A stretch of 64,000 nucleotides of DNA from an uncultured Chromatiales bacterium (lineage in GTDB: Bacteria; Bacteroidota; Ignavibacteria; SZUA-365): NCBI GenBank assembly GCA_964448285.1, contig CAYUWG010000004.1:35314-99313 (forward strand), written 5' to 3'. The notes under the pieces are model-generated. The model had not been told where the DNA came from. It searched no databases and saw only the letters and a list, made by a program, of their open reading frames with translations. Positions 45,139 through 64,000 of the stretch are shown piece after piece. Position numbers and translations under genes: made by a program. Each line of letters begins with the position of its first letter. Within the stretch, counting starts at the first letter, position 1.

Positions 45139-46040
45139 TGCCTCCTTCGTTCGATACGCTCCTGCGAAGCTTCTTGAATTATCTGAAATTGGAACGCGGA
45201 CTTGCCGCGAACTCCATCGCTGCATATCACACAGACCTGAAACGCTACATCAGCTATCTCGATGCGAACGATGTCAGTTCACCGGATAGTGTTTCAACTC
45301 CGCTTCTCAGCGCATATCTCAAGAATCTGCGTAACGCGTCACTCGCCCCCGGCTCTATCGCGCGCAGTATCTCGTCATTGCGACAGTTCCATCGCTATCT
45401 GATGTATGAGTCATACAGCGGAACCGACCCGACGGAAAACATAGAATCCCCAGCGCATCCACGCAGGTTGCCGAACGTCCTCACAATCGAAGAAGTGTTT
45501 CGCATTCTCGAACAACCAAAAACCGATACTCCACTCGGCCATCGCGATCGCTCGATTCTCGAAACTCTCTATGCATCAGGCTTGCGTGTCTCTGAACTGC
45601 TCGCTCTGAGGATGGATCAAGTCCTGGCAGAAGCAGGCGCCTTGCGCGTTTTCGGTAAAGGAAGCAAAGAACGTTATGTCCCATTCGGGAATGAAGCCAT
45701 TCACTGGTTTCAAAGCTACACCACTCATATTCGTCCGCAGTTGTTGCAACGAGGTCATTCCACCGATGTCGTGTATCTCAATCACCGGGGTCGCCCGATG
45801 ACGCGCATGAGCATTCTTACCATCGTGAAAAAGTACGCTGCCGCAACAGGGATCGCTCATGACGTTCATCCCCATACGTTGCGGCATTCATTCGCAACCC
45901 ATCTGCTTGAAGGCGGAGCAGACTTGCGCTCGGTGCAGGAGATGCTCGGCCATTCCGACATCAGCACGACGCAGATTTACACGTATATCGATCGGGAATA
46001 TCTCCACGAAGTTCATCGCACGTTTCACCCGAGGGCATGA
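45135..46040 (+). CDS. xerD: site-specific tyrosine recombinase XerD
   Basis: 301 aa containing GLRVSEL, HTLRHSFATHLLEGGADLRSVQEMLGHSDISTTQIYT and the catalytic Tyr. Nothing in the context suggests a mobile-element integrase. Confidence 0.88.
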   Translation: MMPPSFDTLLRSFLNYLKLERGLAANSIAAYHTDLKRYISYLDANDVSSPDSVSTPLLSAYLKNLRNASLAPGSIARSISSLRQFHRYLMYESYSGTDPTENIESPAHPRRLPNVLTIEEVFRILEQPKTDTPLGHRDRSILETLYASGLRVSELLALRMDQVLAEAGALRVFGKGSKERYVPFGNEAIHWFQSYTTHIRPQLLQRGHSTDVVYLNHRGRPMTRMSILTIVKKYAAATGIAHDVHPHTLRHSFATHLLEGGADLRSVQEMLGHSDISTTQIYTYIDREYLHEVHRTFHPRA

Positions 46041-51597: not shown

Positions 51598-51859
51598 GGA
51601 TGTAGAATACTGAATTCATGCATGGAAGGAAAGAGTCTGAACTTGGATTTACTTGATTCTTTTGATTACCAGGAATGTCTGAACTTGGATTTTCTCTCGA
51701 TTACCAGGAAATGTCTGAACTGGGATTTACTTGATTCTTTCGATTACCAGGATGAAGGAGCGAATCAATCCTGGAAATCCTTTAATCCCAGAAATCAAGG
51801 TTCAGACAATCCTAATCACAGTTCAGACAACCCTAATCACGGTTCAGACAACCTACAGC

Positions 51860-51976
51860 GTCTGAACTGGGATTTACTTGATTCTCTCGATTACCAGGAT
51901 TCGAGTTCTTTCTTCGAATTCTCGAACGAGAACAATCCAGGAAATCCTTTAATCCCAGAAATCTCAGTTCATACAA
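51860..51976. mobile_element. complete ~117-nt MITE-like unit (A - 33-nt core - B)
   Basis: It has imperfect ~40-nt terminal inverted repeats (GTCTGAACTGGGATT... / ...AATCCCAGAAATCTCAGTTCATAC). The central core is TCGAGTTCTTTCTTCGAATTCTCGAACGAGAAC with an apical TTCGA/TCGAA hairpin. There is no coding capacity. Confidence 0.55.
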
Positions 51977-51984
51977 CCAACAAT

Positions 51985-52102
51985 GTCTGAACTGGGATTC
52001 ACTTGATTTTTTCGATTACAAGAATTCGAGTTCTTTCTTCGAATTAGCGAACGAGAACAATCCTGGAAATCCTTTAATCCCAGAAATCACGGTTCAGACA
52101 AC
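51985..52102. mobile_element. second complete ~118-nt MITE-like unit (A - core - B)
   Basis: Its architecture is the same as 51860-51976, with a few substitutions by eye. Confidence 0.55.
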
Positions 52103-52107
52103 ATGGT

Positions 52108-53301
52108 TCAGACAACCCCAAGTACGATCACAGAAGCTACCGCGCCGGGGCCGCCGATGTTATGCGTCAGACCGAGCCGGGCGTTAGGGATTTGTCTTTC
52201 ACCGGCAGTGCCTCGCAGGTGTTCGGTGATTTCGCAAACCATGCGAATGCCCGTCGCACCGACTGGGTGACCGCAGGAAAGTAATCCGCCGCTCACGTTT
52301 ATCGGAATTTCGCCGTCACGCAACGTCGCACCCGAACGGATAAGCTCCTTCCCTTCACCTGCCGCACAAAAGCCGAGGTCTTCGTAAGTAAGAAGCTCGA
52401 CAATGGAAAAGCAATCATGAACTTCCGCAAGATCAATCTGTTCACGCGGGTTCGTAATGTCCGCTTCATCATACGCCTTTCGCGCAGCAACCTGCGTTGC
52501 TCGAAACGACAGGAGATCATACGACGCATCGAAGTACGGCAAATCCCACCCCGACGAGACGGAAACTCCGAGCCCCTTGAGATAGATCGGTGATCCGGAA
52601 AATTTCTGCGCGTCTTCACTGCGCACGAGTATCACCGCTGCTGCTCCATCGGTTGTCGGGCAAGAGTCCATGACCGTGAGCGGGTCGGCGACGATGGGCG
52701 ATTGCAATACCTGTTCGATCGTAACAGCTTTCCTGTGATGGGCTTTCGGATTGAGGCAGGCATTCGCATGGTTCTTCACGCTGATGGCGGCGAGGTCTTC
52801 GCGCGTGACACCGAATTTTTCGAAGTGCCTGCTTGCGTACATCGCGAACGTCCCCGCCGCTGTGAAGCCTTTCTGATAGAACGGATGCCCCATCTCAACC
52901 ATCATCTTCACGATGCTGTCCTGCGGACTGCGGTCGCGTAGTTTTTCCACACCGAGCGCCAGCGCGACGTTGCATTCACCGGCGAGCAGCGCGTTCACAG
53001 CACCGCGAATGGCTTCGGCCCCCGTCGTACAGTAATTCGAAACGCGAATGATCGGAATATCGAACAGCCCGAGCGGCTCCGCGAGGTCCATCCCTGAACG
53101 CCCTTTGTAAATACCCGCTTCCGGAAATGCAGTGCCGAGCCATGCGGCATCTATCACACTCAGCGGAATCCCCGCATCGTTTACGGCAGCACGCGCAGCC
53201 TCCGCGACGAGGTCATCGTAGCTCTTTTCGAACTGTTCACCGAACTTCGTCCACCCCACACCGACGATGCAAACTTTATCCTTCAAGCGCTTCTCAGCCA
53301 T
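52108..53301 (-). CDS. SCP-x / archaeal-type thiolase (thiolase domain protein)
   Basis: 397 aa with a nucleophile Cys context (RVSNYCTTGAEAI) and C-terminal GGLLSCGHPVGATG and HNIGGPG motifs. Confidence 0.88.
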   Translation of the reverse strand: MAEKRLKDKVCIVGVGWTKFGEQFEKSYDDLVAEAARAAVNDAGIPLSVIDAAWLGTAFPEAGIYKGRSGMDLAEPLGLFDIPIIRVSNYCTTGAEAIRGAVNALLAGECNVALALGVEKLRDRSPQDSIVKMMVEMGHPFYQKGFTAAGTFAMYASRHFEKFGVTREDLAAISVKNHANACLNPKAHHRKAVTIEQVLQSPIVADPLTVMDSCPTTDGAAAVILVRSEDAQKFSGSPIYLKGLGVSVSSGWDLPYFDASYDLLSFRATQVAARKAYDEADITNPREQIDLAEVHDCFSIVELLTYEDLGFCAAGEGKELIRSGATLRDGEIPINVSGGLLSCGHPVGATGIRMVCEITEHLRGTAGERQIPNARLGLTHNIGGPGAVASVIVLGVV

Positions 53302-53351
53302 CTACTCTCCGAAACTGATTTCGTCCCCATCTTCTCTCGTACATCATGTAC

Positions 53352-54761
53352 TCATGCTCCTTTCGTGACTTCAACCGGTCGGCACTTCCAAAAGTAGTTC
53401 GGGAAGTTTCCCGCATCGTGATAGCGCCGAAGGACAAGTTCCACACGGTCTCCGATTTCCATCGGGATGTTTTCGTCCGTGACCTGAAGCGTCAAGCGTC
53501 CTCCTCCATCGAGATCGATAGTCGCCATTCCAAGAGGCGGTTCGGGCGTCGGGAAATAATGCTCATGCGTGATTGCATAGACCGCCCCGTTGCGTTGCAA
53601 AGGGTAGTTCTCAAGTTTTTCACTGCGGCATGAGGGACACGATGGAATAGGTAGCGTAACCACCGCACCGCACGAAGCGCAGCGAAGGGCTTTCAAGTTC
53701 AACCAGAGTTGCCTGTTCCGCTCTGACATGATCTCAGATGTAAAACCGGCGCTGGTACCCTCAGCACCTGCATGAAGCTGATGGAGGCTGAGATAGCGAT
53801 TGTATGAAATCTGATAAGACTGCTTCAGAGCTATCCTGAAGGGCGATCGTTTCGGCTGTTCTTTCATTCGCAGCGCAAAACCATCCGCACCATCGCCATA
53901 ACCGATAACGCACAAGCGCTCATCCGATTTCGAGCGTTCCATTGCCGCACACATCATCAGCAGCGTATGCGGCGCACCGGTCAATCCTAACTGTGAACTC
54001 GCGAGATCGATGTATTGCGTTTTCACATCGAAGCCGCTCTCTCTGAGTATGCCACTCCCGCTCTTCACATCGGGACTGTACACGATAACCTTCGAGACTT
54101 CTTCAGGCTTCCATCCCGTCGCGGTGAGCAACGCCTGGATGACATTCTTCACTGGCTGCTTGTACGCGCCTTCCCTTGCGAAGCGCTGGTCGGCGTTGCG
54201 TGGAAAGCGTTCGAGCGCGAGACGCCATGTATCAGGTTGCGCGGAATTCGATTCCACGTTTGTGATAATCTCCACGAGACAGTCTTCCGTGCTCACAAGA
54301 AGCGCCACACCTGCGTGGCCGAAAAGGATTTCATCTGACGCACCAGGTTTCTGAACGCGCGTATCTGCTGCGACGATGAGAACGTTGCGGCAGACCCCGG
54401 CTTCGATCCAGTCGCGAGCGACGGCCAATGCTTTCGTGCCGCTGCGCAAAGAAGAATTGAGGTCGAGTATGCGCGTTCTCGGATCGAGGTCGAGAATCGA
54501 AGCGAGCATTGTTGCACTCGATTTTTCAGAGAAGGGCGCCGTTGTCGTTGCGAAGATCAGACCATCGATTCGTGTCGATGCAACCTCCTTCAGTGCATCG
54601 AATGACGCATAAGCAGCGAGCGTAATGGCATCCTCATCATGGCCGGCAATTGCGCGCGCGCCTTGCATTGATGGCCGGTTCCAGGCGTTTTGTGTCTCGG
54701 CGTTGAGAAGTCTTCGCCTGCAAAGCGCGACTCCCCACGAGGCAATTCCGGCGCTGTTCAT
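53352..54761 (-). CDS. HMG-CoA synthase/KAS-III-like domain fused to a DUF35 (Zn-ribbon + OB-fold) domain
   Basis: 469 aa. The N-terminal ~340 aa resemble archaeal HMGCS (DEDAITLA, ADTRVQKPGASDEILFGHAGVA, VIGYGDGADG). The C-terminus has CASCGAVV...CPSC followed by an OB-fold (MATIDLDGGGRLTLQV...GDRVELV). Confidence 0.75.
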   Translation of the reverse strand: MNSAGIASWGVALCRRRLLNAETQNAWNRPSMQGARAIAGHDEDAITLAAYASFDALKEVASTRIDGLIFATTTAPFSEKSSATMLASILDLDPRTRILDLNSSLRSGTKALAVARDWIEAGVCRNVLIVAADTRVQKPGASDEILFGHAGVALLVSTEDCLVEIITNVESNSAQPDTWRLALERFPRNADQRFAREGAYKQPVKNVIQALLTATGWKPEEVSKVIVYSPDVKSGSGILRESGFDVKTQYIDLASSQLGLTGAPHTLLMMCAAMERSKSDERLCVIGYGDGADGFALRMKEQPKRSPFRIALKQSYQISYNRYLSLHQLHAGAEGTSAGFTSEIMSERNRQLWLNLKALRCASCGAVVTLPIPSCPSCRSEKLENYPLQRNGAVYAITHEHYFPTPEPPLGMATIDLDGGGRLTLQVTDENIPMEIGDRVELVLRRYHDAGNFPNYFWKCRPVEVTKGA

Positions 54762-55897
54762 TCCGTCATCTCTCTGGCGATGAGGAGTTTGAGTATTTCG
54801 CTCGTTCCCCCGCCGATAAGGGTGAAGCGGATGTCTCGGAGATACCGTTGTATCGGATATTCCATTGCATATCCGTAAGACGCGAAGATGCGCGCTGCCT
54901 TGTCACAGATGTCTAATGCGCATTCCGTTGCGAACAGCTTTGCCATCGCAGCGATGCGTGTGATCTCTTCACCGCTGTCTTTCATCCTCGCGGCATAGCG
55001 AACGAGTTGCGTTGCTGCTTCGAGGTCCGTGCCCATTTCCGCGAGTTTCAGTTGTATCGCTTGGAAGCGATTGATCGGCTTCCCAAACTGCTGGCGCTCA
55101 TTCGCATAGCGCAGTGAATCCGCTAACGCCGCACGTGCAACGCCAAGCGCAAGCGCTCCGGTCATTATGCGAATGTCGGAAAGGATTTCCCGCAGACGCG
55201 ACTCCCCTTCGCCTTCATCTCCAAGTCGATGATCGTCGGGAACGAAGCAATCTGTGAACGACACCTCGGACGTTGGCGAGGCCCACACACCAAGTTTCTC
55301 GATCGTACGACCAACGTGTAATCCGCTGAACTCCTTTTCGACAAGAAAGATCGTCAGCCTCTTGTCGTCACCGCAGCGCGCGAAGACCGTGAAGAAATCC
55401 GCCACGGGCGCGGCTGTGATCCACATCTTCTGGCCGTTCAAGCGATATCCTCCGTCAGCTTTCACCGCAGTCGTCGCTATGGACGAAAGGTCACTCCCGG
55501 CGTTTGGCTCCGTGATGCAGATCGTTCCGATTTTTTCCCCAAGAAGAGCGGGCGAAAAAAGACGCTTGCGGATGTCGTCGTTGCCGAGCGCGAAGAGAAA
55601 GTGCGTCCCCATCAGCGACTGCATCGCGGCGCATGCGGCAAGCGAAAGTGAACCGCGTGCGATCTCTTCGATAGCGAAACAGAACGTGAGGAAGTCCACA
55701 CCTGCACCCCCGACGGATTCGGGATAGCGTAAGCCGAAGAATCCCATATCGGCGAGTTCGATGAACAGTGCGCGCGGAAATTCCTTCGCGTCATCCAACG
55801 CGGCAGCGACCGGCTTTACTCGCTCGTCAGAAAATCGTGCGAATGTCTCCCTGATGAGGTTCTGTTCTTCAGTCAGATGATTGTTCATCCTGATCAT
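54758..55897 (-). CDS. acyl-CoA dehydrogenase-fold flavoprotein
   Basis: 379 aa with the typical ACAD N-, middle and C-terminal domains (CITEPNAGSDL, YPIQRYLRDIRFTLIGGGTSEI). Confidence 0.85.
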   Translation of the reverse strand: MIRMNNHLTEEQNLIRETFARFSDERVKPVAAALDDAKEFPRALFIELADMGFFGLRYPESVGGAGVDFLTFCFAIEEIARGSLSLAACAAMQSLMGTHFLFALGNDDIRKRLFSPALLGEKIGTICITEPNAGSDLSSIATTAVKADGGYRLNGQKMWITAAPVADFFTVFARCGDDKRLTIFLVEKEFSGLHVGRTIEKLGVWASPTSEVSFTDCFVPDDHRLGDEGEGESRLREILSDIRIMTGALALGVARAALADSLRYANERQQFGKPINRFQAIQLKLAEMGTDLEAATQLVRYAARMKDSGEEITRIAAMAKLFATECALDICDKAARIFASYGYAMEYPIQRYLRDIRFTLIGGGTSEILKLLIAREMTE

Positions 55898-56375
55898 TCA
55901 TCCAGAATCTTCTCAGACAGCAGCCTCCACCGGCGGGGAGTGATGTTACCGTTTCAAAATGGAGGCGCGTCCCAAGTGCGGCGTTTACTTCATCGACAAC
56001 CGTCTTCAGCCAGTGGTCACATCCGATTTGGTCTTCGTGCAGGAGTCCTTCCCGTTGATGCCAATGGTACCACGGGCAATCGTTGTGACGTGCCTGGTGT
56101 TTTCCATCCGTTGTCGATTCGAGCAACTCTGCATCTTCGCCCATTGCCTGACTGCTCGAAACGAAAAGCTGCGCAACTTGCGCTGCAACATCTCCCTGAG
56201 GATCGATCTTCCTGAGATAAAACTTTGCAGTGTCCTTTCCGACTTCTTCCCAATACTTCTTCACCAACTCGACCGGATCGAGATCGGGATTCAACGCGAG
56301 CGCCGCACGCCGCCATTCGAAATGCGATGCTCGCATGATCCCCGAAAGAATTTCCAATTTCTTCGCATCATCCAT
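55869..56375 (-). CDS. small Cys/His-rich protein (possibly ATC-hydrolase-like family)
   Basis: About 168 aa from the internal Met. It contains HNDCPWYHWH...IGCDHW...LPAGGGCCLRRF and overlaps both neighbouring genes. The family assignment is from memory only. Confidence 0.5.
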   Translation of the reverse strand: MDDAKKLEILSGIMRASHFEWRRAALALNPDLDPVELVKKYWEEVGKDTAKFYLRKIDPQGDVAAQVAQLFVSSSQAMGEDAELLESTTDGKHQARHNDCPWYHWHQREGLLHEDQIGCDHWLKTVVDEVNAALGTRLHFETVTSLPAGGGCCLRRFWMNDQDEQSSD

Positions 56376-58107
56376 TGTCGTTCCTCCGAAGTGCTGCCGT
56401 CGCTTCTTCATCTACTGTGTATGTCTCCGGATCGATCACCACACCGTAGTCGTTTCGCGCGACATCGAAAGAAAGGACGCCATTACGCACGTCGCGTAAT
56501 ACACGCTCGACGGGGCGCAATCGCGGATCGCTAAATCCTCCCCCACCTCCTGCATGCTGATGATAGATCGTTCCCTTCGGGACGCCGGTAAAGAGATCGA
56601 GCCCGAGCGGTTTTTTCTCCGAGCCATCCGGGAATTTCAGCGTGATGGAATTGAGTGATCCTGCTTCACCTCCGTTGAGTCCGAATGCCGGTTCCTCATC
56701 GCCATCACCAAAGAGGACAAGCTGCGTGTTGTCGTTGCCGATTTCGAATATCGTTTCCACACCGAGGCCGCCCCGCCACTGACCGGCGCCCGCAGAGTCA
56801 CAGAAGTATTCATGCTTCAGAAGTAGATGCGGTGTTTGCTGTTCGAACATCTCATAGTCCTGATCGAGTAAGCCGCCGGAAGCGTCTATCATCCCGATGT
56901 GATCATAGCCATCGACTCCGTGCATCGCGCCGGAGCCACCTTTCAAACCCATGAAACAGATATCGACGTACTTGTCATTCTTGCGCGGATCGATGCCTGT
57001 AGTGAGCGAACAGAGCAGGTGATTCCATCCGGCTGTGATGCGATCCGGAATGACGTTTTGAAGCGCGCGTGAAATTGCGTCGGCGTTGTTCGGGCAGAGG
57101 TGGTTGCCGTATGTCGTCGCCGCGGGATAGGATGCATTGAGAATCGTTCCCTCGGGAATGATGATCTCGATCGGTTCAACCATTCCCTGATTATGCGGAA
57201 TATCGGGATTCACCATTTGGAGAAACGTCAGAACCGTCGCAGAAGCGCTCGATGTATAGGTTCCGTTGACGAACGCATTCGTTTGCGCGTCAGTCCCGGT
57301 GTAATCGAAGCGAATGCGATCGTCGCTCACGGTGATCTCGACACGGATCGTGTAGCGCTTACCGACGTTCCTGCCATCGTAATACACGAGTGATTCGCCG
57401 TGATAAACACCGTTCGGAATTGCAGCAATTTCCGCTTCCATCATTTTGCGCGTCGCGTCGAAGAGTGCGCGCTTGTGTGTCTCGTATCGTTCAACGCCGT
57501 ATTTCTCAAGGAGCTTGACCATGCGCCGTTCACCGACGATGCACGAACCGATTTCTGCACGCATGTCTTCTTCCACCATCGGAAACCGAATGTTCGCGAA
57601 GATCATCTCCCATACGTCCTTGCGAAGCTTTCCTTTCTCGTAGACTTTCACGGGTGGAATGCGCAACGCCTCCTGCCAGACTTCCGTCGCATTCGGATTA
57701 TAGCCGCCTGCGACCGCGCCGCCGATGTCCGCCTGGTGTCCCTTGCAGGCTGACCATGCGACGAGCTTGTCTTCGAAGAAGATCGGCTTATAGACCGCAA
57801 CGTCGTTGTTCTGATTACCCATGCTGAAAACGTCATTATGGAAAATCACGTCGCCGGGGTGGATGTCGTCACCGAAGTAGTTGATAATGTATTTGCAGAC
57901 GGGGCCGAGCGAGAACGAGAGGATCGGGAGGTTCTCAGTCTGTTCGAGCATGTTTCCTCCTGCATCGTAGAGACCCGTGACGAAGTCCTTCGCTTCGCAA
58001 AGGATCGGTGAGCGCGTCGTCTTTTGCAGCGATATGCTCATCTCACTCGTGATCGATTTGAATGCACGCGCAAAGACGGAGAGAAGAATCGGATCGACGT
58101 TGCTCAT
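56368..58107 (-). CDS. hydantoinase B/oxoprolinase family protein (HyuB-like)
   Basis: 579 aa. The N-terminus (DPILLSVFARAFKSITSEMSISLQKT) and overall length match HyuB/caprolactamase-beta-type subunits. Confidence 0.9.
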   Translation of the reverse strand: MSNVDPILLSVFARAFKSITSEMSISLQKTTRSPILCEAKDFVTGLYDAGGNMLEQTENLPILSFSLGPVCKYIINYFGDDIHPGDVIFHNDVFSMGNQNNDVAVYKPIFFEDKLVAWSACKGHQADIGGAVAGGYNPNATEVWQEALRIPPVKVYEKGKLRKDVWEMIFANIRFPMVEEDMRAEIGSCIVGERRMVKLLEKYGVERYETHKRALFDATRKMMEAEIAAIPNGVYHGESLVYYDGRNVGKRYTIRVEITVSDDRIRFDYTGTDAQTNAFVNGTYTSSASATVLTFLQMVNPDIPHNQGMVEPIEIIIPEGTILNASYPAATTYGNHLCPNNADAISRALQNVIPDRITAGWNHLLCSLTTGIDPRKNDKYVDICFMGLKGGSGAMHGVDGYDHIGMIDASGGLLDQDYEMFEQQTPHLLLKHEYFCDSAGAGQWRGGLGVETIFEIGNDNTQLVLFGDGDEEPAFGLNGGEAGSLNSITLKFPDGSEKKPLGLDLFTGVPKGTIYHQHAGGGGGFSDPRLRPVERVLRDVRNGVLSFDVARNDYGVVIDPETYTVDEEATAALRRNDNG

Positions 58108-60227
58108 GAAATCGACTCCTGGAGTTTCGCGTGTTTCGCAATCCGAGCAAGATGTTCATGTCCTTTTTGATAGATGACGAACGAACCGTATTTGTCGCAG
58201 ACGGAATCGTATGAACCGCTCACGAAGATCGTCGTGTTCACCTGCTCGATGATTGCCGGACCGTGAATGCGATTTCCGAACTGTGTCGAATGCCCGTCAT
58301 ACACGGGAATGGTGAGAAATGCATTCTCCTCCGGAATGAACACTGCACGCTCGGTTTTGAGTGCGTTGCTCGCGTCCTCGCCTGCGTATTCTTCTTCACG
58401 ATAGGCTGGCTTTTCCGTAACGCCGACAGCTCTCACACGGATGTTGATCAACTCGATCGGAGTGTTTTCCGCTTCAAGTGAATATCCGAACATCCTGTTA
58501 TGCTCGATATGGAAAGGAGCCATGATGGCGGAAAGATCGCGTCGCCGGATTGTGTCGATCGGCACGTCGAAAGAGACTTCGTGATACTGCTTCACGTAAC
58601 GGCAGTCCAACTTCAACTGGAAGCGCCTGCGATCCTCTTCGATCTTTTCTTCAGCGAGAATACTCCGTCCATCGCTGAGCATCTCATCGATGATCGTACT
58701 GAGTCGCTCCCAGTCGAGTTTGTTCAACGGTGTAACGAATGACCGAACGAAATCATGCTGCAGATCGCTCATGAGCATCCCGGCTGCGCAGAAGATCGAC
58801 GATTCGCGAGGAACGATGAACATGGGGATTTCGAGTTCGTGACAGATCATGCATGAGTGAATCGGTCCGGCACCGCCTGCGACTACCATCGGAAACTCAC
58901 GTGGATCGTACCCTCGCTTGATCGTGATCTCGCGAACGCCTTGCGCCATGTTGGTATTGATGACGCGATACATACCTGCCGCCGTTTCTTCGACTGAGAG
59001 TTTCAAGAGCTTCGCGATGCTTTCGATCGCACTCCTCGCTGACTCAACCTCGAGTTTCATTTTCCCGCCGGCAAAGAATTCCGGATCGAGATAGCCGAGA
59101 ACGAGATCGGCGTCTGTGCACGTCGGGAGGATTCCACCTCGACCATAACAAGCGGGACCGGGTGATGCGCCTGCACTCTGCGGACCCATTCGCAGCAATC
59201 CTCCTTCATCGATCCATCCGATGCTGCCTCCGCCGGCGCCGATCGTAACGATGCCCAGCATGGGAAGTGCGATGCGATAGCGATTGATCTCCCCTTCCGT
59301 TTCCACGATGGGCGAACCATCGAGCACGAGCGCCGCATCGAAGCTCGTCCCTCCCATATCGACGGTTACGCAGCTTTCGTGTCCGTGTGCGCGAACGTAT
59401 TCAAGTCCGGCGCCGGGACCCGCGGCGGGACCGGAGAGTAACGTCATCGATGCATGTCGCCGAGCGACTTCCGGCGAAACGACTCCACCGTTCGACTGCA
59501 TGATCAGTAGCACACCGCGGAATCCAATCGCATGAAGGCGCGATTGAAGGCTTGCGATATACGAATCGAGAATCGGTCCGACATAGGAGTTCAGCACGGT
59601 CGTGCTAACACGGTCGTAAAAACGTACCGACGGCAGTAACTCGGATGACACCGTGAGATACGCATCCGGCATTTCCTTGCGAACGATTTCCGCCGCGCGT
59701 TCTTCGTGTTGTGCATTCGCAAAAGAATTCATGAAACAGATTGCGACCGCATCGATCGCTTCTCTCCTGAAAAGTCGGATTGCCGAAAGAACATCATCCT
59801 CATCTAACGGATGGATTTCTTCGCCGCAATAATCCAACCGTCCCTTCACACCGATGCGCAGATAGCGTTCGACAAGAGGCGGGACGTTCGTGTAGCGATT
59901 GTTGTACTGTTCCTCGCGGATCCCGCGCCTCATTTCCAAAGCATCCCGCACTCCGGCAGTCGTGACGAGGCCGGTCTTCGCACCGGACATCGTCAGTGTC
60001 GCATTCGTCGTGACTGTGGTTCCATGCACGATCGTAGCGATCGTAGGCGCGAAATCTTCCAGCGAAAGATTTCTGCTCACTGCGATTTCGTTCAAACCAT
60101 TGAGAAGTCCGATTGACGGGTCTCCGGGTGTGGAGAGCACTTTGTAAATGCGCGGCTCTTCTCCATCGGCTGTGAGAAGAAAGTCCGTGAACGTTCCGCC
60201 AACGTCGATTCCAATCTTCAATGCCAT
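58104..60227 (-). CDS. hydantoinase A/oxoprolinase family protein (HyuA-like, ATP-binding)
   Basis: 707 aa with ASKHA-fold motifs (IGIDVGGTFTDF, VDMGGTSFD). It overlaps hyuB by 4 nt. Confidence 0.9.
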   Translation of the reverse strand: MALKIGIDVGGTFTDFLLTADGEEPRIYKVLSTPGDPSIGLLNGLNEIAVSRNLSLEDFAPTIATIVHGTTVTTNATLTMSGAKTGLVTTAGVRDALEMRRGIREEQYNNRYTNVPPLVERYLRIGVKGRLDYCGEEIHPLDEDDVLSAIRLFRREAIDAVAICFMNSFANAQHEERAAEIVRKEMPDAYLTVSSELLPSVRFYDRVSTTVLNSYVGPILDSYIASLQSRLHAIGFRGVLLIMQSNGGVVSPEVARRHASMTLLSGPAAGPGAGLEYVRAHGHESCVTVDMGGTSFDAALVLDGSPIVETEGEINRYRIALPMLGIVTIGAGGGSIGWIDEGGLLRMGPQSAGASPGPACYGRGGILPTCTDADLVLGYLDPEFFAGGKMKLEVESARSAIESIAKLLKLSVEETAAGMYRVINTNMAQGVREITIKRGYDPREFPMVVAGGAGPIHSCMICHELEIPMFIVPRESSIFCAAGMLMSDLQHDFVRSFVTPLNKLDWERLSTIIDEMLSDGRSILAEEKIEEDRRRFQLKLDCRYVKQYHEVSFDVPIDTIRRRDLSAIMAPFHIEHNRMFGYSLEAENTPIELINIRVRAVGVTEKPAYREEEYAGEDASNALKTERAVFIPEENAFLTIPVYDGHSTQFGNRIHGPAIIEQVNTTIFVSGSYDSVCDKYGSFVIYQKGHEHLARIAKHAKLQESIS

Positions 60228-60880
60228 GATGCTGCCTCCGTGATGTGCAGCTTTGCCCCGATATCCACGCCGATGCGAAACGTTTTATTGTTCGCTTCAG
60301 CAATATGGGGCGGGGCTTTGTCCTTGACGTATTGCAGAAAGTCCTCAGGCGTATAGGACAATAAGCCTGATCCGAAAACGCAACCGAGCATGATGATGTT
60401 GACCGACTTGACCGCACCGGCTTTCTCGGCGAGTTCCGTTGCCGGCACGATGAAAACATTCTGCGTTACGGCAGTGACGCTGTTTTGAAGTGCTTCCAAC
60501 TCAGGATACTTGCCATCGCCTTTCTTCAGGACGAATTGCTGTGAGAGGACGAATGGAACGACGGAAGCGGTGTTCATGATGACGACGGTGTTGTTCGAAA
60601 TGAATGGAAGCGCACGTACGGTTTCCACCGGTTCGAAACCGATGACGATGTCGGCACCACCGATTGGAATGATCGGACTGTTTCCGCAATCGATCAACAC
60701 CGACGATTGCACGGCGCCGCCTCGCTGGGCCATGCCATGCAGTTGTCCGCTTACAACCTGATGATCGCGATCGACGAAGAACTCACTGAGGAGCTTGGCC
60801 GCTGTGATAACGCCCTGGCCGCCTGTTCCCGCCAGGAGAATTCTTTTACCGGGCATAGGAAAATTGTCATGCATCGACAT
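60218..60880 (-). CDS. iorB: indolepyruvate:ferredoxin oxidoreductase beta subunit (2-oxoacid:Fd oxidoreductase gamma-like)
   Basis: 220 aa containing ILLAGTGGQGVITAAKLL. It is coupled to iorA by a 14-nt overlap. Confidence 0.85.
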   Translation of the reverse strand: MSMHDNFPMPGKRILLAGTGGQGVITAAKLLSEFFVDRDHQVVSGQLHGMAQRGGAVQSSVLIDCGNSPIIPIGGADIVIGFEPVETVRALPFISNNTVVIMNTASVVPFVLSQQFVLKKGDGKYPELEALQNSVTAVTQNVFIVPATELAEKAGAVKSVNIIMLGCVFGSGLLSYTPEDFLQYVKDKAPPHIAEANNKTFRIGVDIGAKLHITEAASWH

Positions 60881-62750
60881 GTGCGGTCACCTGTGAAATC
60901 GCATCGTGATTGCAAACCTGTGCGCACAGATCGCAACCGTCGCACAACGTGGGATCGATGATGTAATCTCCATCCTCGATGTAAATGGCGGGGCATCCCA
61001 ACACGCGCACGCAGAGAGAGCAGCCGTTGCACACCGACATGTCGATCACATAGGGCAGCCGCTTTCCCTCCGGATTGATTTTGTTTTCATACACGACGCA
61101 AGGCGAATTGCAGATGATGACATTGACGCCATCACCCTTCTTCGCTTTCTTCATCGCATCGAGCGTGGCTTCTTCATCGAAAGGATCGACGGAGTAGATT
61201 TCTTTCACGCCAAGACCGAGCACGGCAGTCTTGATCGAGATTCCCATGGGATTGTGTCCGTTCGATGAGAAGACGCCACAGCCATCTTCACGCATCGCAA
61301 CGGTCGGTTGAAAGCCTGTCATTGCCGTGACGTAGTTGTTCAGGATGAAGACGGTGACCTTGTCTTTCGCCTGAACGGCGTTCGCCAAAGCGGGAAGACC
61401 GCTGTGAAAGAACGTCGAATCGCCGATGAATGCGAGCGTGCGTTCGCCAGTCGTTCGTGCAATACCGCTTGCCTGGCTGATACTCGCCCCCATGCACAAC
61501 AACACGTCGCAACAGTCAAGGGGTTCGCCATAACCGAGCGTGTAGCATCCGATGTCGTTGACATAGACGGTCTTCTTTCCAAAGATGCGCTTCGCCAAAT
61601 AATACGTCGTTCGATGGGGACATCCGGGGCAAAGCACGGGAGGCCGCTCCGGCAAATCGGGAACGACGACGACTGGCTTCGGTTTTTCGTCCAAGTTGAG
61701 ATAACGGCGAATGCCTTTCTCGACGATGTCGGGAGTGTATTCGAATTCCAAAGGAAAGTGGTCGGTCTCTTTTCCCATGATTGGAATCAGTCGGCCGGCG
61801 CGAAACGCCGCAAGAGCGACAAGCTCTTCCACATAGGGAGTGAGTTCTTCGACGACCAATACAGAATCGACAGAGAGAAGAAAGTCCTGAAGGATCGTTG
61901 ACGGTACCGGGTATGCGCCGATCTTGAGAACGCTTACTGTTTCCTGCAGTCGAAGCTGATTGACGAGTGACTCGACGTAGGTGAACGCGACGCCGCTCGC
62001 GACGATACCCGCACGGCCGGTTCCCATCCGGGGAAAGAACTCCGACTCTGCGAGGAGTTTTTCCGCGAGCGCGAAATGCTCGATCAACTCCTTTCTCATT
62101 CGGCGTGCATTTCCCGGGATGGGAACATAGCGCGGGGGATTCTTCACGAACTTCACTTCGTTCTTCACTTCCGGCAACGAATCGAATTCCACCATCGAAC
62201 TCGTGTGACACACGCGAGTCGTCGGTCGCATGATGACGGGCAAGCGTGTTTGCTCGGAAAAACCGAACGCATATTTCGTCATGCGACGGGCATCCTCAGC
62301 GGTCGAAGGGTCGAATACCGGATAGTACAGATACTTGCACAGATGGCGTTGGTCTTGCTCGTTCGAACTCGTGATCGCCGACGGATCACCCGCCGAGACG
62401 ATCACCATTCCGCCTTCGACGCCGATGTACGGCATTGTCGCAAGAGGGTCAGCCGCATAACTCAACCCGACGTGCTTCATTCCGCACATCGAACGTGCAC
62501 CCGTGAGACTTGCCGCATATGCAATCTCGACGGCGATTTTCTCGTTCACGGAATATTCGAACAGGATGCCGGCTTTCTTGTGGATGCGTGCGAAGAGATC
62601 GCCAACTTCGGACGAAGGAGTGCCGGGATAGCAGGAAAAGAATTGAACGCCTGCTTCCAGTGCGCCGCGCACGATTGCGTGGTTTCCTAAGAGAATGGAT
62701 TTCGCACCGGGAGTGTTCGAAAGGATTTCGTGTGAAGAAGAAGCGCTCAT
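60867..62750 (-). CDS. iorA: indolepyruvate:ferredoxin oxidoreductase alpha subunit
   Basis: 627 aa with a TPP-binding region (GDSTFFHSG) and a C-terminal 2x[4Fe-4S] motif (CNGCSLCV...CDGCDLCAQVC). Confidence 0.9.
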   Translation of the reverse strand: MSASSSHEILSNTPGAKSILLGNHAIVRGALEAGVQFFSCYPGTPSSEVGDLFARIHKKAGILFEYSVNEKIAVEIAYAASLTGARSMCGMKHVGLSYAADPLATMPYIGVEGGMVIVSAGDPSAITSSNEQDQRHLCKYLYYPVFDPSTAEDARRMTKYAFGFSEQTRLPVIMRPTTRVCHTSSMVEFDSLPEVKNEVKFVKNPPRYVPIPGNARRMRKELIEHFALAEKLLAESEFFPRMGTGRAGIVASGVAFTYVESLVNQLRLQETVSVLKIGAYPVPSTILQDFLLSVDSVLVVEELTPYVEELVALAAFRAGRLIPIMGKETDHFPLEFEYTPDIVEKGIRRYLNLDEKPKPVVVVPDLPERPPVLCPGCPHRTTYYLAKRIFGKKTVYVNDIGCYTLGYGEPLDCCDVLLCMGASISQASGIARTTGERTLAFIGDSTFFHSGLPALANAVQAKDKVTVFILNNYVTAMTGFQPTVAMREDGCGVFSSNGHNPMGISIKTAVLGLGVKEIYSVDPFDEEATLDAMKKAKKGDGVNVIICNSPCVVYENKINPEGKRLPYVIDMSVCNGCSLCVRVLGCPAIYIEDGDYIIDPTLCDGCDLCAQVCNHDAISQVTAHVDA

Positions 62751-62806
62751 GAGTACCTGTGTCGTTTTCCTGTAAGCTTGCGAAACGGTCTGTTACCCAC
62801 AGTCAT

Positions 62807-64000
62807 CTACGCCGGTTGAAGCGCTCCGATTTGCTCTATACCGGCATGGAGTTCCTCGTCGGTGAGATAGTGATCGATGAGTTTGCCGTTGTAGTAATCT
62901 TCGTATGCACTCATATCGAAATAGCCGTGACCGCAAAGGTTGAAGAGAATGGTCTTCGACTGACCCTCTTCGCGCGCTTTGTTCGCTTCGCGTACGACCT
63001 GTGCAATGCCGTGCGTCGCCTCAGGTGCCGGCAGGATTCCCTCCGTGCGTGCGAACTTGACGCCCGCATCGAAGCACTCCAATTGCTGGATTGCCGTCGC
63101 TTCGATCAACTTGTCCTTGAGCAATTGACTGACGATCACACCCGCGCCGTGATAGCGCAATCCCCCCGCGTGAATCGGCGCCGGGACGAACGTATGTCCG
63201 AGCGTGTACATCGGCAGGAGCGGCGTCATCCCGATCGTGTCGCCGAAGTCGTAGAGGAACTCGCCCTTCGTCAGCTTCGGACACGATGCCGGTTCGACGG
63301 CAACACAGCGAATATTCCTTCCTTCGGTGAGTTTGTAGCGAAGGAATGGAAATGAAATGCCGGCAAAGTTCGAACCGCCGCCGAACGGCGCAATGACGAT
63401 ATCCGGAAAATCACCGGCCATCTCCATTTGCTTCACGGCTTCAAGTCCGAGCACTGTCTGATGCATGAGTACGTGATTGAGTACACTTCCGAGAGAATAC
63501 TTTTTATTCTCGTCCATCGCAGCGCGCTCGACCGCTTCCGAAATCGCGATGCCTAAACTTCCCGGTGAATCCGGCGACTCCGAGAGAATCTTTCGACCCG
63601 CTTCCGTTCTATCGCTCGGTGATGCGAGTACTTCGGCGCCCCACGTATTCATGAGCAGCTTCCTGTACGGTTTCTGGTTGAAGCTGATCTTCACCATATA
63701 GACTTCGAGTTCAAGCCCGAAGTGATTACATGCGAAACTCAATGCGCTTCCCCACTGTCCGGCGCCTGTTTCCGTCGTCAGGCACTTCACGTTTTCCATC
63801 TTGTTGTAATACGCCTGCGGAACGGCGGTATTCGGTTTATGTGACCCTGCGGGGCTTACACCCTCGTACTTGTAGTAAATCTTCGCGGGCGTGTCGAGGA
63901 GCCTTTCAAAGCGACGAGCGCGGAACAACGGAGTCGGCCTCCAAATCTTGTAGATGTCCCGAACTTCTTCCGGAATATCGATCCAGCGCTCCTGCGAGAC
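62807..64000 (-). CDS. TrpB-like PLP enzyme, type 2 tryptophan synthase beta (TrpB2); N-terminus lies outside the window
   Basis: The frame stays open to nt 64000 ([32 protein letters not shown]...). The PLP-Lys context is [11 protein letters not shown], and GGGSNFAG is present. The track start at 63928 is an internal TTG. Confidence 0.88.

Follow-up and report, generated by a model that had tools for sequence, protein, structure and literature searches.

A tightly packed operon that probably encodes an indolepyruvate-fed variant of anaerobic indoleacetate degradation in an uncultured FCB-group bacterium

Layout and limits of the operon

The window, the whole 64,000-nt stretch of DNA that we analysed, carries nine intact minus-strand open reading frames that run from position 52,108 to beyond 64,000, as established from ORF calls and from Pfam and NCBIfam models (Table 1). 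Read 5′ to 3′ from TrpB2, the junctions measure 56, −8 or −14, −10, −4, −8, −20 or −29, −4 and 50 nt, the paired values depending on the start codon. Several of the starts are preceded by GGAG-type ribosome-binding sites, and a hairpin followed by a T-run is found in neither of the two positive spacers (56 and 50 nt). Many phyla share this gene order, which puts the clustering far beyond chance. We read the nine genes as one tightly packed operon, presumably co-transcribed. A preliminary description of this DNA had given the same coordinates and spacings, and the Pfam and NCBIfam searches of all nine proteins agree with the family that it named for each gene.

That description also had the operon continuing past the window edge, which holds for approximately the first 58 codons of TrpB2 and for nothing upstream of them. 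In three near-identical contigs (L001, L002 and L087), TrpB2 is complete at 455 aa, and 616 nt of non-coding sequence separate it from the next gene on its 5′ side, an unrelated guanylate cyclase/TPR gene, which makes TrpB2 the start of the unit. At the 3′ end, the thiolase gene is followed by a spacer of 510 nt, filled with MITE-like repeats in units of about 125 nt with inverted ends (TGTCTGAACTGGGATT and AATCACGGTTCAGACA), and then by housekeeping genes (IscS-like, IscA and SOD). The whole analysis rests on MAG sequences; the three contigs above come from independent public assemblies, agree at 97–100% protein identity across the locus and all break at the repeat-filled spacer.

Table 1. 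Features of the operon and its 3′ flank, listed from the 5′ end of the operon
Feature	Coordinates	Strand	Basis
TrpB2, TrpB-like PLP enzyme, first gene	62807..64000 (5′ end beyond window)	−	NF009057, TIGR01415
IorA, indolepyruvate:ferredoxin oxidoreductase (IOR) alpha subunit, TPP-binding, two 4Fe-4S motifs	60867..62750	−	TIGR03336, Pfam
IorB, IOR beta subunit, 218 or 220 aa by start codon	60218..60874/60880	−	Pfam POR
HyuA, ATP-binding alpha subunit, hydantoinase/lactamase type	58104..60227	−	Pfam, NCBIfam
HyuB, beta subunit of HyuAB, putative IaaE equivalent	56368..58107	−	Pfam Hydantoinase_B, 489 bits
Small 168-aa protein	55869..56375	−	Alignment, AlphaFold2 model, Foldseek
Acyl-CoA dehydrogenase (ACAD), IaaF type	54758..55888/55897	−	Pfam, GGG motif
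KASIII/HMGCS-like domain fused to DUF35 zinc ribbon and OB fold	53352..54761	−	Structure matches, Pfam
SCPx/BbsB/PhlC-type thiolase, last gene	52108..53301	−	Thiolase_N, Thiolase_C_1, NF004810
Repeat-filled spacer, ends the cluster	51626..52115	.	Sequence and repeat analysis

Families encoded by the nine genes

TrpB2 passes two equivalog models for TrpB-like proteins (NF009057, 653.8 bits against a cut-off of 366; TIGR01415, 583 against 519) and has the PLP-lysine motif GSHKPN, as expected of the stand-alone tryptophan synthase beta paralogues; unlike that family, it sits in a catabolic cluster and not in a trp operon. It recurs in three arrangements: at the head of the operon, as here; directly 5′ of HyuA (L063 and L071, 79% identity); and beside IorBA and the small protein (L026, L032 and L034). 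Other phyla have it as a pair with SerA beside IOR, the SerA gene adjoining it in L026 and L029.

IorA scores above the cut-off of the IOR_alpha equivalog model (665.8 against 650.9 bits) and has POR_N, TPP_enzyme_C and Fer4 domains, which leaves its reading as a generic 2-oxoacid oxidoreductase unsupported. The best NCBIfam matches of IorB, which public assemblies call in its 218-aa form, are IOR beta models at 157 bits, under their cut-offs of 205–238. In 11 related loci IorAB lies immediately 5′ of HyuA; in Magnetospirillum and Sulfuritalea (L019 and L088) that slot is filled by an AMP-forming ligase. In the gene order, IorAB takes the exact place of the canonical indoleacetate-CoA ligase.

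HyuA, with Hydant_A_N, Hydantoinase_A and Hydant_A_C domains, and HyuB find their best curated models in the caprolactamase subunits CapA and CapB. These lactamase-type best matches argue against a bona fide 5-oxoprolinase. The ATP-dependent CapAB and the hydantoinase/ketone carboxylase family (PMC8453981, PMC5214803) are likewise built of two subunits, with gene order A then B. Both window proteins fall short of the 1000-bit cut-offs (CapA, 686 bits; CapB, 430 bits), which rules out a caprolactamase. With Magnetospirillum and Sulfuritalea as proxies for the Aromatoleum aromaticum proteins, HyuA is 65–67% identical to the HyuA beside the CoA ligase in their iaa clusters, and HyuB is 74–75% identical to the HyuB of canonical-order clusters. 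HyuA is thus a candidate IaaC equivalent, a 2-oxoindoleacetyl-CoA gamma-lactamase.

The ACAD, called as 376 aa with its start at 55888 in public assemblies, contains all three ACAD domains of Pfam. Near its C terminus it reads LIGGGTSEI, with GGG where YEG is usual, and all orthologues of at least 51% identity keep this motif. The substitution is a hallmark specific to the IaaF subclass, a decarboxylating benzylmalonyl-CoA dehydrogenase (PMC8360864). The window protein shares 70% identity with its counterpart in the iaa cluster of Sulfuritalea (Rhodocyclales), an ACAD whose C terminus, IAKEVSS, is the one encoded by the published iaaF primer for the characterised IaaF. In that cluster the order is thiolase, ligase, HyuA, HyuB, ACAD, B12 mutase, Mo-hydroxylase (three subunits), CoA-transferase and binding protein. 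We predict that the window ACAD is a decarboxylating (2-aminobenzyl)malonyl-CoA dehydrogenase.

The small protein, noted in the preliminary description for its Cys and His residues, has invariant His97, Cys100, Cys119 and Cys153 in the alignment and belongs to a narrow family (109 representatives among 1.84 billion proteins), scoring slightly under the threshold of Pfam ATC_hydrolase. Its AlphaFold2 model (pLDDT 94.6) suggests a V4R/Bet3/H-NOX-like fold of ligand-binding type, matching Bet3/TRAPPC3 and the phenol-sensor domains of PoxR, DmpR and MopR with TM scores of 0.5–0.59. The 50 Foldseek matches listed include no carboxylase subunit, all of them being Bet3/TRAPP subunits, phenol-sensor domains, H-NOX proteins or designed proteins; on these matches and the V4R/Bet3-like fold, a subunit of AcxC/Apc-gamma type was rejected. 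The family is a hallmark of these clusters, and a fusion to a PaaK-type aryl-acetate CoA ligase occurs in one relative (P0292). The small protein is probably a conserved accessory with a metal site that would bind an indolic or aryl-acetyl substrate. No homologue was found in the canonical Sulfuritalea cluster, so it is not essential to the chemistry.

The last two genes form a module. The HMGCS-like::DUF35 protein has zf-ChsH2 and OB_ChsH2_C domains, and its HMGCS-like domain matches best, among solved structures, PhlA (5m3k, 9skh) and then archaeal HMGCS (6esq_I). The DUF35 fusion and HMGCS-like fold given in the preliminary description stand, but the protein is no synthase: Leu stands at the position of the catalytic Cys of HMGCS, eight orthologues likewise lack Cys there, and because the nucleophile is absent, as in PhlA, no synthase activity is expected. 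The domain is a probable catalytically inactive PhlA-like scaffold and partner subunit of the thiolase. The thiolase itself passes NF004810 (438.5 bits, cut-off 403), is 63–84% identical in syntenic loci and is proposed to be a 2-aminobenzoylacetyl-CoA thiolase. PhlACB, BbsAB and the archaeal thiolase/HMGCS/DUF35 complex (PDB 5m3k, 7pxp and 6esq) share the three building blocks of the module, namely an SCPx-type thiolase, a KASIII/HMGCS-fold subunit and a DUF35 zinc-ribbon/OB protein. By contrast, the window joins the KASIII-fold and DUF35 parts in a single polypeptide, and the module scores far under the cut-offs of the BbsA and BbsB models (201 bits for the thiolase against BbsB).

Synteny with iaa clusters and the absent second half

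The closest known system is the iaa cluster of A. aromaticum EbN1 and Aromatoleum (Azoarcus) evansii (Ebenau-Jehle 2012; Schuhle 2016; PMC8360864), which likewise has a hydantoinase-type alpha/beta pair and then a GGG-motif decarboxylating ACAD (IaaF). The window differs in that IorAB stands in the position of the absent indoleacetate-CoA ligase, TrpB2 heads the operon, the V4R-like protein lies between HyuB and ACAD, and PhlA-like::DUF35 and an SCPx-type thiolase replace the ordinary thiolase upstream of the ligase. The window copy also lacks mutase, Mo-hydroxylase, CoA-transferase, transporter and regulator genes.

The block is syntenic in other genomes of several phyla. In at least 11 genomes IorAB, HyuA, HyuB, small protein and ACAD, with or without the thiolase module, run on into iaa genes, continuing as iaaC-E-F-GH-IJK-L with a B12 mutase, a three-subunit Mo-hydroxylase and a family III CoA-transferase. 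The continuation into B12-binding protein, mutase, Mo-hydroxylase and CoA-transferase is seen in L003/L083, L005, L013, L014, L015 and L082, and in part only in L008, L009 and L071. By tblastn, mutase, Mo-hydroxylase and family III CoA-transferase are absent from the 64-kb window, in agreement with the preliminary description, which had seen neither of the first two there; the search beyond position 64,000 that it called for finds none of the three within 6 kb upstream. The window thus holds part of the pathway only, and without these enzymes the operon by itself has no way of producing the compound on which its IaaF-type ACAD acts.

It is conceivable, though in our view unlikely, that the operon is a stranded remnant, its mutase, Mo-hydroxylase and CoA-transferase half cut off by a rearrangement at the repeat spacer, leaving an incomplete pathway whose genes are decaying or repurposed. 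The cluster stops exactly where its relatives run into B12-binding and mutase genes: in L007 (proteins 72–82% identical) the B12-binding mutase gene starts 30 nt after the thiolase, where the window has the repeats and then housekeeping genes, and the second half is found neither in the window nor upstream of it. This reading, however, is at odds with nine intact reading frames, with the tight translational coupling kept by all of them except the truncated TrpB2 and with the near-identity of the three assemblies. Moreover, it is common for the genes of a pathway to lie at more than one locus: L011/L085, L019 and L031 differ in how the small protein, Hyu genes and mutase block are arranged.

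Proposed route from tryptophan to 2-aminobenzoyl-CoA

The gene set appears to correspond to the first half of iaa, the known pathway by which the indole ring of indoleacetate is broken down without oxygen. We consider it likely that the operon encodes the entry and the CoA-ester part of an iaa-type anaerobic conversion of the indole side chain and pyrrole ring to 2-aminobenzoyl-CoA. The preliminary description had suggested such a variant, entered through IOR instead of a CoA ligase, and the ACAD motif and its identity to the Sulfuritalea enzyme, the IorAB slot and the genes that directly follow the thiolase in relatives all bear this out.

Family assignments, motifs and synteny lead us to propose the following substrates and order of steps. 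Tryptophan would be transaminated to indolepyruvate, which IorAB would oxidatively decarboxylate to indoleacetyl-CoA, replacing the ATP-consuming indoleacetate-CoA ligase IaaB. A Mo-hydroxylase, absent from the window, would give 2-oxoindoleacetyl-CoA, and HyuAB (IaaC/IaaE type) would open the gamma-lactam at the expense of ATP to (2-aminophenyl)succinyl-CoA. CoA-transferase and B12 mutase, likewise absent from it, would yield (2-aminobenzyl)malonyl-CoA, which the GGG-motif ACAD would oxidize and decarboxylate to 2-aminocinnamoyl-CoA. After hydration and oxidation, the thiolase, held on the inactive PhlA-like::DUF35 scaffold, would release 2-aminobenzoyl-CoA and acetyl-CoA. Aminotransferase, enoyl-CoA hydratase and 3-hydroxyacyl-CoA dehydrogenase genes are absent from the nine-gene operon. 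TrpB2 would most likely capture free indole as tryptophan and feed it into the same route.

Indolepyruvate is the proposed substrate of IorAB, the substrate preference of IOR not being readable from sequence; IOR enzymes accept several arylpyruvates. This, together with HyuAB scores under every curated equivalog cut-off and a cluster content that varies widely across phyla (OYE-type reductases in some, ACADs with FEG and not GGG in some), would also fit a different 2-oxoacid, aryl or N-heterocyclic (a substituted indole, for instance, or some other heterocycle that forms a lactam), the likeness to iaa then reflecting chemistry and not substrate. We regard this as improbable, given that the ACAD shares both high identity and the rare GGG motif with a canonical iaa-cluster enzyme, that HyuA and HyuB are 65–75% identical to those of ligase-type iaa clusters, and that TrpB2 recurs in association with these genes, which points to indole and tryptophan. 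That the last two genes instead form an archaeal-type acetoacetyl-CoA thiolase/HMG-CoA synthase complex, making HMG-CoA and unrelated to the upstream genes, is very improbable: the nearest NCBIfam model of the N-terminal domain is indeed archaeal HMG-CoA synthase and 6esq has the same three components, but the score of 156.7 bits falls short of the 244-bit cut-off, Leu replaces the catalytic Cys, PhlA, which is not a synthase, is the top structural relative, Dxs, which opens the MEP isoprenoid route, is encoded in the window, and in iaa-type clusters the module always lies between ACAD and mutase.

An indolepyruvate-fed iaa route has a reported parallel. In Ferroglobus placidus, tryptophan is said to pass by transamination and IOR to the aryl-acetyl-CoA and, as proposed, through an iaa-like route to 2-aminobenzoyl-CoA, the same logic as put forward here; the host of the window is an uncultured FCB-group bacterium, and here IOR is translationally coupled to the lactamase genes. 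F. placidus also has an iaa operon with an IaaF orthologue (PMC8360864). Although the preliminary description did not recognise the combination as a pathway, the core iaa pathway is already described, so this is not unrecognised chemistry. Because it would be fed by tryptophan-derived indolepyruvate instead of free indoleacetate, the operon would represent a pathway variant and not a new kind of system. The iaa pathway is known but little studied.

Extent and organization of the operon

All nine minus-strand reading frames named in the preliminary description are present, and Pfam and NCBIfam HMM searches confirm the family of each. The junctions are tight, at 56, −8 (or −14), −10, −4, −8, −20 (or −29), −4 and 50 nt, the values varying with the start codon, and GGAG-type ribosome-binding sites stand ahead of several starts. 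Neither of the two spacers in the operon contains a terminator-like hairpin with a T-run, and a scan for consensus promoters and terminators gave nothing usable within the operon.

The unit had been expected to run on past the window edge. Near-identical public contigs, reached by exact matches of the small protein (168-aa start) and the 218-aa IorB (an exact match of IorA gave none), contradict this expectation. The full TrpB2 in these contigs is 455 aa long and is preceded by 616 nt of non-coding sequence and an unrelated guanylate cyclase/TPR gene, so the unit begins at TrpB2; divergent housekeeping genes lie further upstream. At the other end, 3′ of the thiolase, a 510-nt spacer leads to IscS-like, IscA, SOD and Lon-N genes. 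The remainder of the window carries core chromosomal genes (Dxs, NadB, RNase Y, PheST, ThrS, HslU, RpoN and LigA), and the best named relatives of ThrS, from Ignavibacteria and Bacteroidota MAGs (72–75% identity) and from Kryptonia (62%), fit an uncultured FCB-group host. A XerC/D-type tyrosine recombinase gene between the genes for a 7TM-HD receptor and thymidylate kinase looks like a housekeeping recombinase and not part of a mobile element.

Coordinates of features in the window and in related loci
Feature	Sequence	Coordinates	Strand
Operon, in order of transcription: TrpB2, IorA, IorB, HyuA, HyuB, small protein, ACAD, KASIII/HMGCS-like::DUF35, SCPx-type thiolase	Window	52108 to beyond 64000	minus
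Small V4R-like protein	Window	55869–56375	minus
KASIII/HMGCS-like::DUF35 fusion	Window	53352–54761	minus
Repeat spacer between thiolase stop and IscS-like gene	Window	51626–52115	
XerC/D-type tyrosine recombinase gene	Window	45135–46040	
OYE–small protein pair (examples from L022–L068)	L026	7990–10471	
OYE–small protein pair	L037	7725–10468	
OYE–small protein pair	L036	7999–13056	
TrpB2 adjoining SerA	L026	15233–18410	
TrpB2 adjoining SerA	L029	1218–4100	
200-aa protein with NucS_C-type domain	L088	9395–9997	

Relation to the anaerobic indoleacetate pathway

The preliminary description did not recognize this gene combination as a described pathway. That judgement does not stand for the core chemistry, which is already known from the anaerobic indoleacetate (iaa) pathway, and the operon is therefore not a new kind of system. 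What varies is the entry through indolepyruvate:ferredoxin oxidoreductase (IOR), TrpB2 at the head, the PhlA-like::DUF35 fusion scaffold and its thiolase, the small V4R-like protein and a broad distribution among uncultured anaerobes. To our knowledge, the biochemistry of the anaerobic iaa pathway has been studied only in Aromatoleum, and we know of no tests of its Mo-hydroxylase, its lactamase or the electron acceptor of IaaF.

First, the acyl-CoA dehydrogenase (ACAD) of the window has the motif ...FTLIGGGTSEI..., in which GGG replaces the catalytic YEG motif; this replacement, used here as the criterion for the IaaF subclass, is its hallmark (PMC8360864). GGG is kept in every ACAD orthologue of at least 51% identity, and the unrelated ACADs of Bacillota-type loci (32–36% identity) have FEG in its place. 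The ACAD homologues among the matches are environmental proteins only (at least 69% identity), with none from Aromatoleum.

Second, a lactamase pair resembling IaaC/IaaE adjoins the ACAD, the references being two proxy clusters to which HyuA is 65–67% and HyuB 74–75% identical. The cluster of Magnetospirillum sp. SS-4 (L019) encodes thiolase, ligase, HyuA (65%) and HyuB (74%). The cluster of a Sulfuritalea (Rhodocyclales) MAG (L088), with HyuA at 67%, HyuB at 75% and an ACAD 70% identical to that of the window, runs thiolase, AMP-forming ligase, HyuA, HyuB, ACAD, B12-binding protein, mutase, three Mo-hydroxylase genes, CoA-transferase and periplasmic binding protein, an order that fits the published iaaA to iaaM nomenclature. 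The Sulfuritalea ACAD ends in IAKEVSS, matching the C terminus that the published iaaF reverse primer (PMC8360864) specifies; the A. aromaticum iaa gene table used here is a reconstruction from the Sulfuritalea proxy and the primers of that paper.

Other identities for HyuAB were weighed and rejected. The best curated NCBIfam models are those of caprolactamase, CapA for HyuA (686 bits) and CapB for HyuB (430 bits), both far below their cut-offs of 1000. An acetone or acetophenone carboxylase, marked by long alpha and beta subunits and a four-Cys gamma subunit downstream of the beta gene, is disfavoured by Apc model scores of 118–385 bits against cut-offs of 1250–1500. The small protein does not qualify as such a gamma subunit, having a V4R/Bet3-like fold with His and three Cys ligands.

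Third, the entry step is consistent in position with the known clusters. IorA passes TIGR03336 (665.8 bits, cut-off 650.9), and IorB falls short of its cut-offs, at 157 bits against 238 and 147.5 bits against 205.8, all of its top matches being IOR beta models. Pfam searches found no AMP-binding gene in the operon that could encode the indoleacetate-CoA ligase IaaB. In both proxy clusters this ligase lies immediately upstream of HyuA, and in the window and 11 related loci IorAB fills the slot before HyuA. The earlier proposal that IOR replaces a CoA ligase as the entry is thus supported, because IorAB occupies exactly the position of the ligase, its substrate preference being a prediction. No open paper that our searches reached describes an iaa operon with IOR in it; because these searches did not cover the most relevant papers, this is not proof of absence. 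Aklujkar's 2014 study of Ferroglobus is reported to have put forward a pathway from tryptophan through IOR into an iaa-like route.

Conservation of the block and its missing second half

Because it is located mid-block, the small protein was chosen as the search anchor. It has 92 relatives in a large protein collection, and a profile search keeping one genome per species gave 80 related loci from many phyla, onto which all nine window proteins were mapped by tblastn. MAGs with the labels Chromatiales, Phycisphaerae, Fibrobacteraceae, Gemmatimonadota, Proteobacteria, Myxococcota and Krumholzibacteria share the order IorA–IorB–HyuA–HyuB–small protein–ACAD; the block is syntenic in many phyla, which answers the check that had been proposed.

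In a relative labelled Chromatiales, the cluster runs on uninterrupted after the thiolase, first with a B12-binding protein and a methylmalonyl-CoA-mutase-type protein, next with a xanthine-dehydrogenase-type hydroxylase (FAD, 2Fe-2S and Mo subunits) and finally with a family III CoA-transferase; XdhC and a MobA-like gene lie upstream. Comparable continuations past the block occur in L005, L009, L013, L014, L015, L082 and others, and mutase genes come directly after the thiolase or the ACAD in syntenic relatives. Mo-hydroxylase and CoA-transferase are both present in L003/L083, L009, L013 and L014; in L005, L015 and L082 the Mo-hydroxylase genes sit where the available sequence of the locus ends. 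The genes following the block in relatives are exactly the iaa functions that had been listed as missing. Their absence from the window was upheld: tblastn of the 64 kb found no match to the B12-dependent (2-aminophenyl)succinyl-CoA mutase (IaaGH), the three-subunit Mo-hydroxylase or the family III CoA-transferase (IaaL), and none of these lies in the 6 kb upstream of the operon.

The break coincides with the spacer after the thiolase, nearly all of which consists of full or partial copies of a ~125-nt unit whose 16-nt ends, TGTCTGAACTGGGATT and AATCACGGTTCAGACA, are inverted. The unit looks MITE- or REP-like, and two motifs of it that were searched for do not occur elsewhere in the window. 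All three independent public assemblies of the locus end at this spacer, where synteny with relatives also breaks; in the related locus L007 (proteins 72–82% identical), the B12-binding gene begins 30 nt after the thiolase. The second half of the pathway is either elsewhere in this genome or lost. A still working operon is favoured, because the frames are intact, tightly coupled and conserved in several strains.

Relatives also differ within the block. Some have the scaffold::DUF35–thiolase pair and some lack it: in L009, L013, L014 and L016 (labelled Gemmatimonadota, Gemmatimonadaceae or unclassified) the ACAD leads straight to the B12-binding and mutase genes, so the pair is an optional insertion. 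An ordinary thiolase takes its position in L053, L064, L072 and L075. In L053, L060, L064 and L075 (Bacteroidota, Marinimicrobia), a much more divergent 2-oxoacid:ferredoxin oxidoreductase (OFOR) pair, 26–33% identical to the window IorA, lies between the CoA-transferase and Mo-hydroxylase genes, and because of this different placement we conclude that an OFOR has been recruited into these clusters at no fewer than two positions.

Accessory proteins and a candidate indole route

The preliminary label HMGCS-like::DUF35 holds for the fold family and fails for the synthase. The best solved relatives of the HMGCS-like domain are PhlA of the PhlACB acyltransferase (5m3k, 9skh), then archaeal HMG-CoA synthase (6esq), and the DUF35 part matches 6esq_E, PhlB, BbsA and ChsH2. 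Where the synthase has its catalytic Cys (efaCkagt, 6esq_I), the aligned residue is Leu in the window protein and Gly in PhlA; all eight orthologues lack Cys at this position. A mevalonate role as HMG-CoA synthase is excluded because this Cys is absent and Dxs is present in the window; the archaeal synthase model also scores below its cut-off (156.7 bits against 244). Whereas thiolase, HMGCS and DUF35 proteins form a complex in archaeal 6esq, the HMGCS-like and DUF35 parts are fused in the window. The sequence points to a KASIII-like::DUF35 scaffold of the SCPx-type thiolase, as in BbsAB, the predicted thiolase substrate being 2-aminobenzoylacetyl-CoA.

The small protein belongs to a narrow family (109 representatives among 1.84 billion proteins) with invariant His97, Cys100, Cys119 and Cys153. 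Its predicted model (pLDDT 94.6) has a Bet3/V4R/H-NOX-like small-molecule-binding fold, and among the matches listed the nearest bacterial folds belong to the phenol-sensor domains of PoxR, DmpR and MopR, which contain zinc. The small protein probably binds an indolic or aryl-acetyl substrate. Against ATC_hydrolase (PF14196), a family whose name refers to one characterised enzyme and implies no activity here, it scores 25.9 bits (gathering threshold 28.1) and its relative P0292 45.1 bits. P0292 (630 aa) is a PaaK-type aryl-acetate CoA ligase (AMP-binding and AMP-binding_C_2) with the small V4R-like protein at its C terminus, a fusion that ties the family to the aryl-acetyl-CoA-forming step. 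In 38 of the 80 loci the small protein is directly 3′ of a ~650-aa OYE/enoate-reductase-type flavoprotein (Oxidored_FMN and Pyr_redox_2). Archaeal Methanomassiliicoccales have the order OYE, small protein, IorA, IorB and lack further iaa genes in the vicinity, and in a Magnetospirillaceae iaa-type cluster the small protein follows a MarR gene. With such varied contexts and no homologue in the Sulfuritalea cluster, it is a frequent, non-universal accessory. The slot between HyuB and the ACAD in that cluster is filled by a protein with a NucS_C-type domain.

TrpB2, its N terminus cut in the window, passes NF009057 (653.8 bits, cut-off 366) and TIGR01415 (583 bits, cut-off 518.85). It is mostly not upstream of IorA in relatives, and three arrangements recur: it leads the operon in the window, stands immediately ahead of HyuA in two Bacteroidota loci (79% identity), and neighbours IorBA and the small protein in loci with Bacillota and Desulfovibrio labels. 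It also adjoins the gene for SerA (D-3-phosphoglycerate dehydrogenase) in two loci of unrelated lineages, near iaa-type genes, which would agree with serine or phosphoserine being provided for indole capture. By our reckoning, indole and serine passing through tryptophan, IOR and the iaa steps would give 2-aminobenzoyl-CoA, acetyl-CoA and two CO2, a carbon yield no worse than that of direct serine catabolism. Because the contexts recur and the carbon balance is not unfavourable, we hypothesize that the most likely role of TrpB2 is to direct free indole into this pathway.

A wider proposal, which we put forward tentatively and consider doubtful, is that TrpB2, IOR and iaa make up an undescribed anaerobic indole route, with the small V4R-like His/Cys3 family as a dedicated component of the indoleacetyl-CoA stage. 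Indole and serine or phosphoserine would form tryptophan, which after transamination would enter the iaa pathway through IOR; compared with the catabolism of serine this would cost no carbon, and the oxindole–isatin–anthranilate sequence would be bypassed. Members of the V4R-like family are in some cases fused to a PaaK-type ligase and frequently occur together with an OYE-type reductase or IaaF. The route may be marked by TrpB2 leading the operon and, in Bacillota and Desulfobacterota loci, by TrpB2 next to IOR and SerA. According to a 2018 review (PMC6221969), neither enzymes nor genes of anaerobic indole breakdown, including those of the oxindole–isatin–anthranilate sequence, had by then been identified, so the TrpB2 hypothesis would be valuable if true.

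The operon and its relatives offer compact, tightly coupled sets of genes with which the lactamase could be expressed alongside its conserved small partner, and the TrpB2 link would open anaerobic indole removal in sediments and digesters to genetic tests. The IOR-fed version is spread over uncultured Ignavibacteria-like FCB bacteria, Planctomycetota, Gemmatimonadota, Myxococcota and others, with a divergent OFOR inside the cluster in Marinimicrobia and other Bacteroidota; in that case its immediate substrate would be tryptophan released by decaying protein, not plant auxin.
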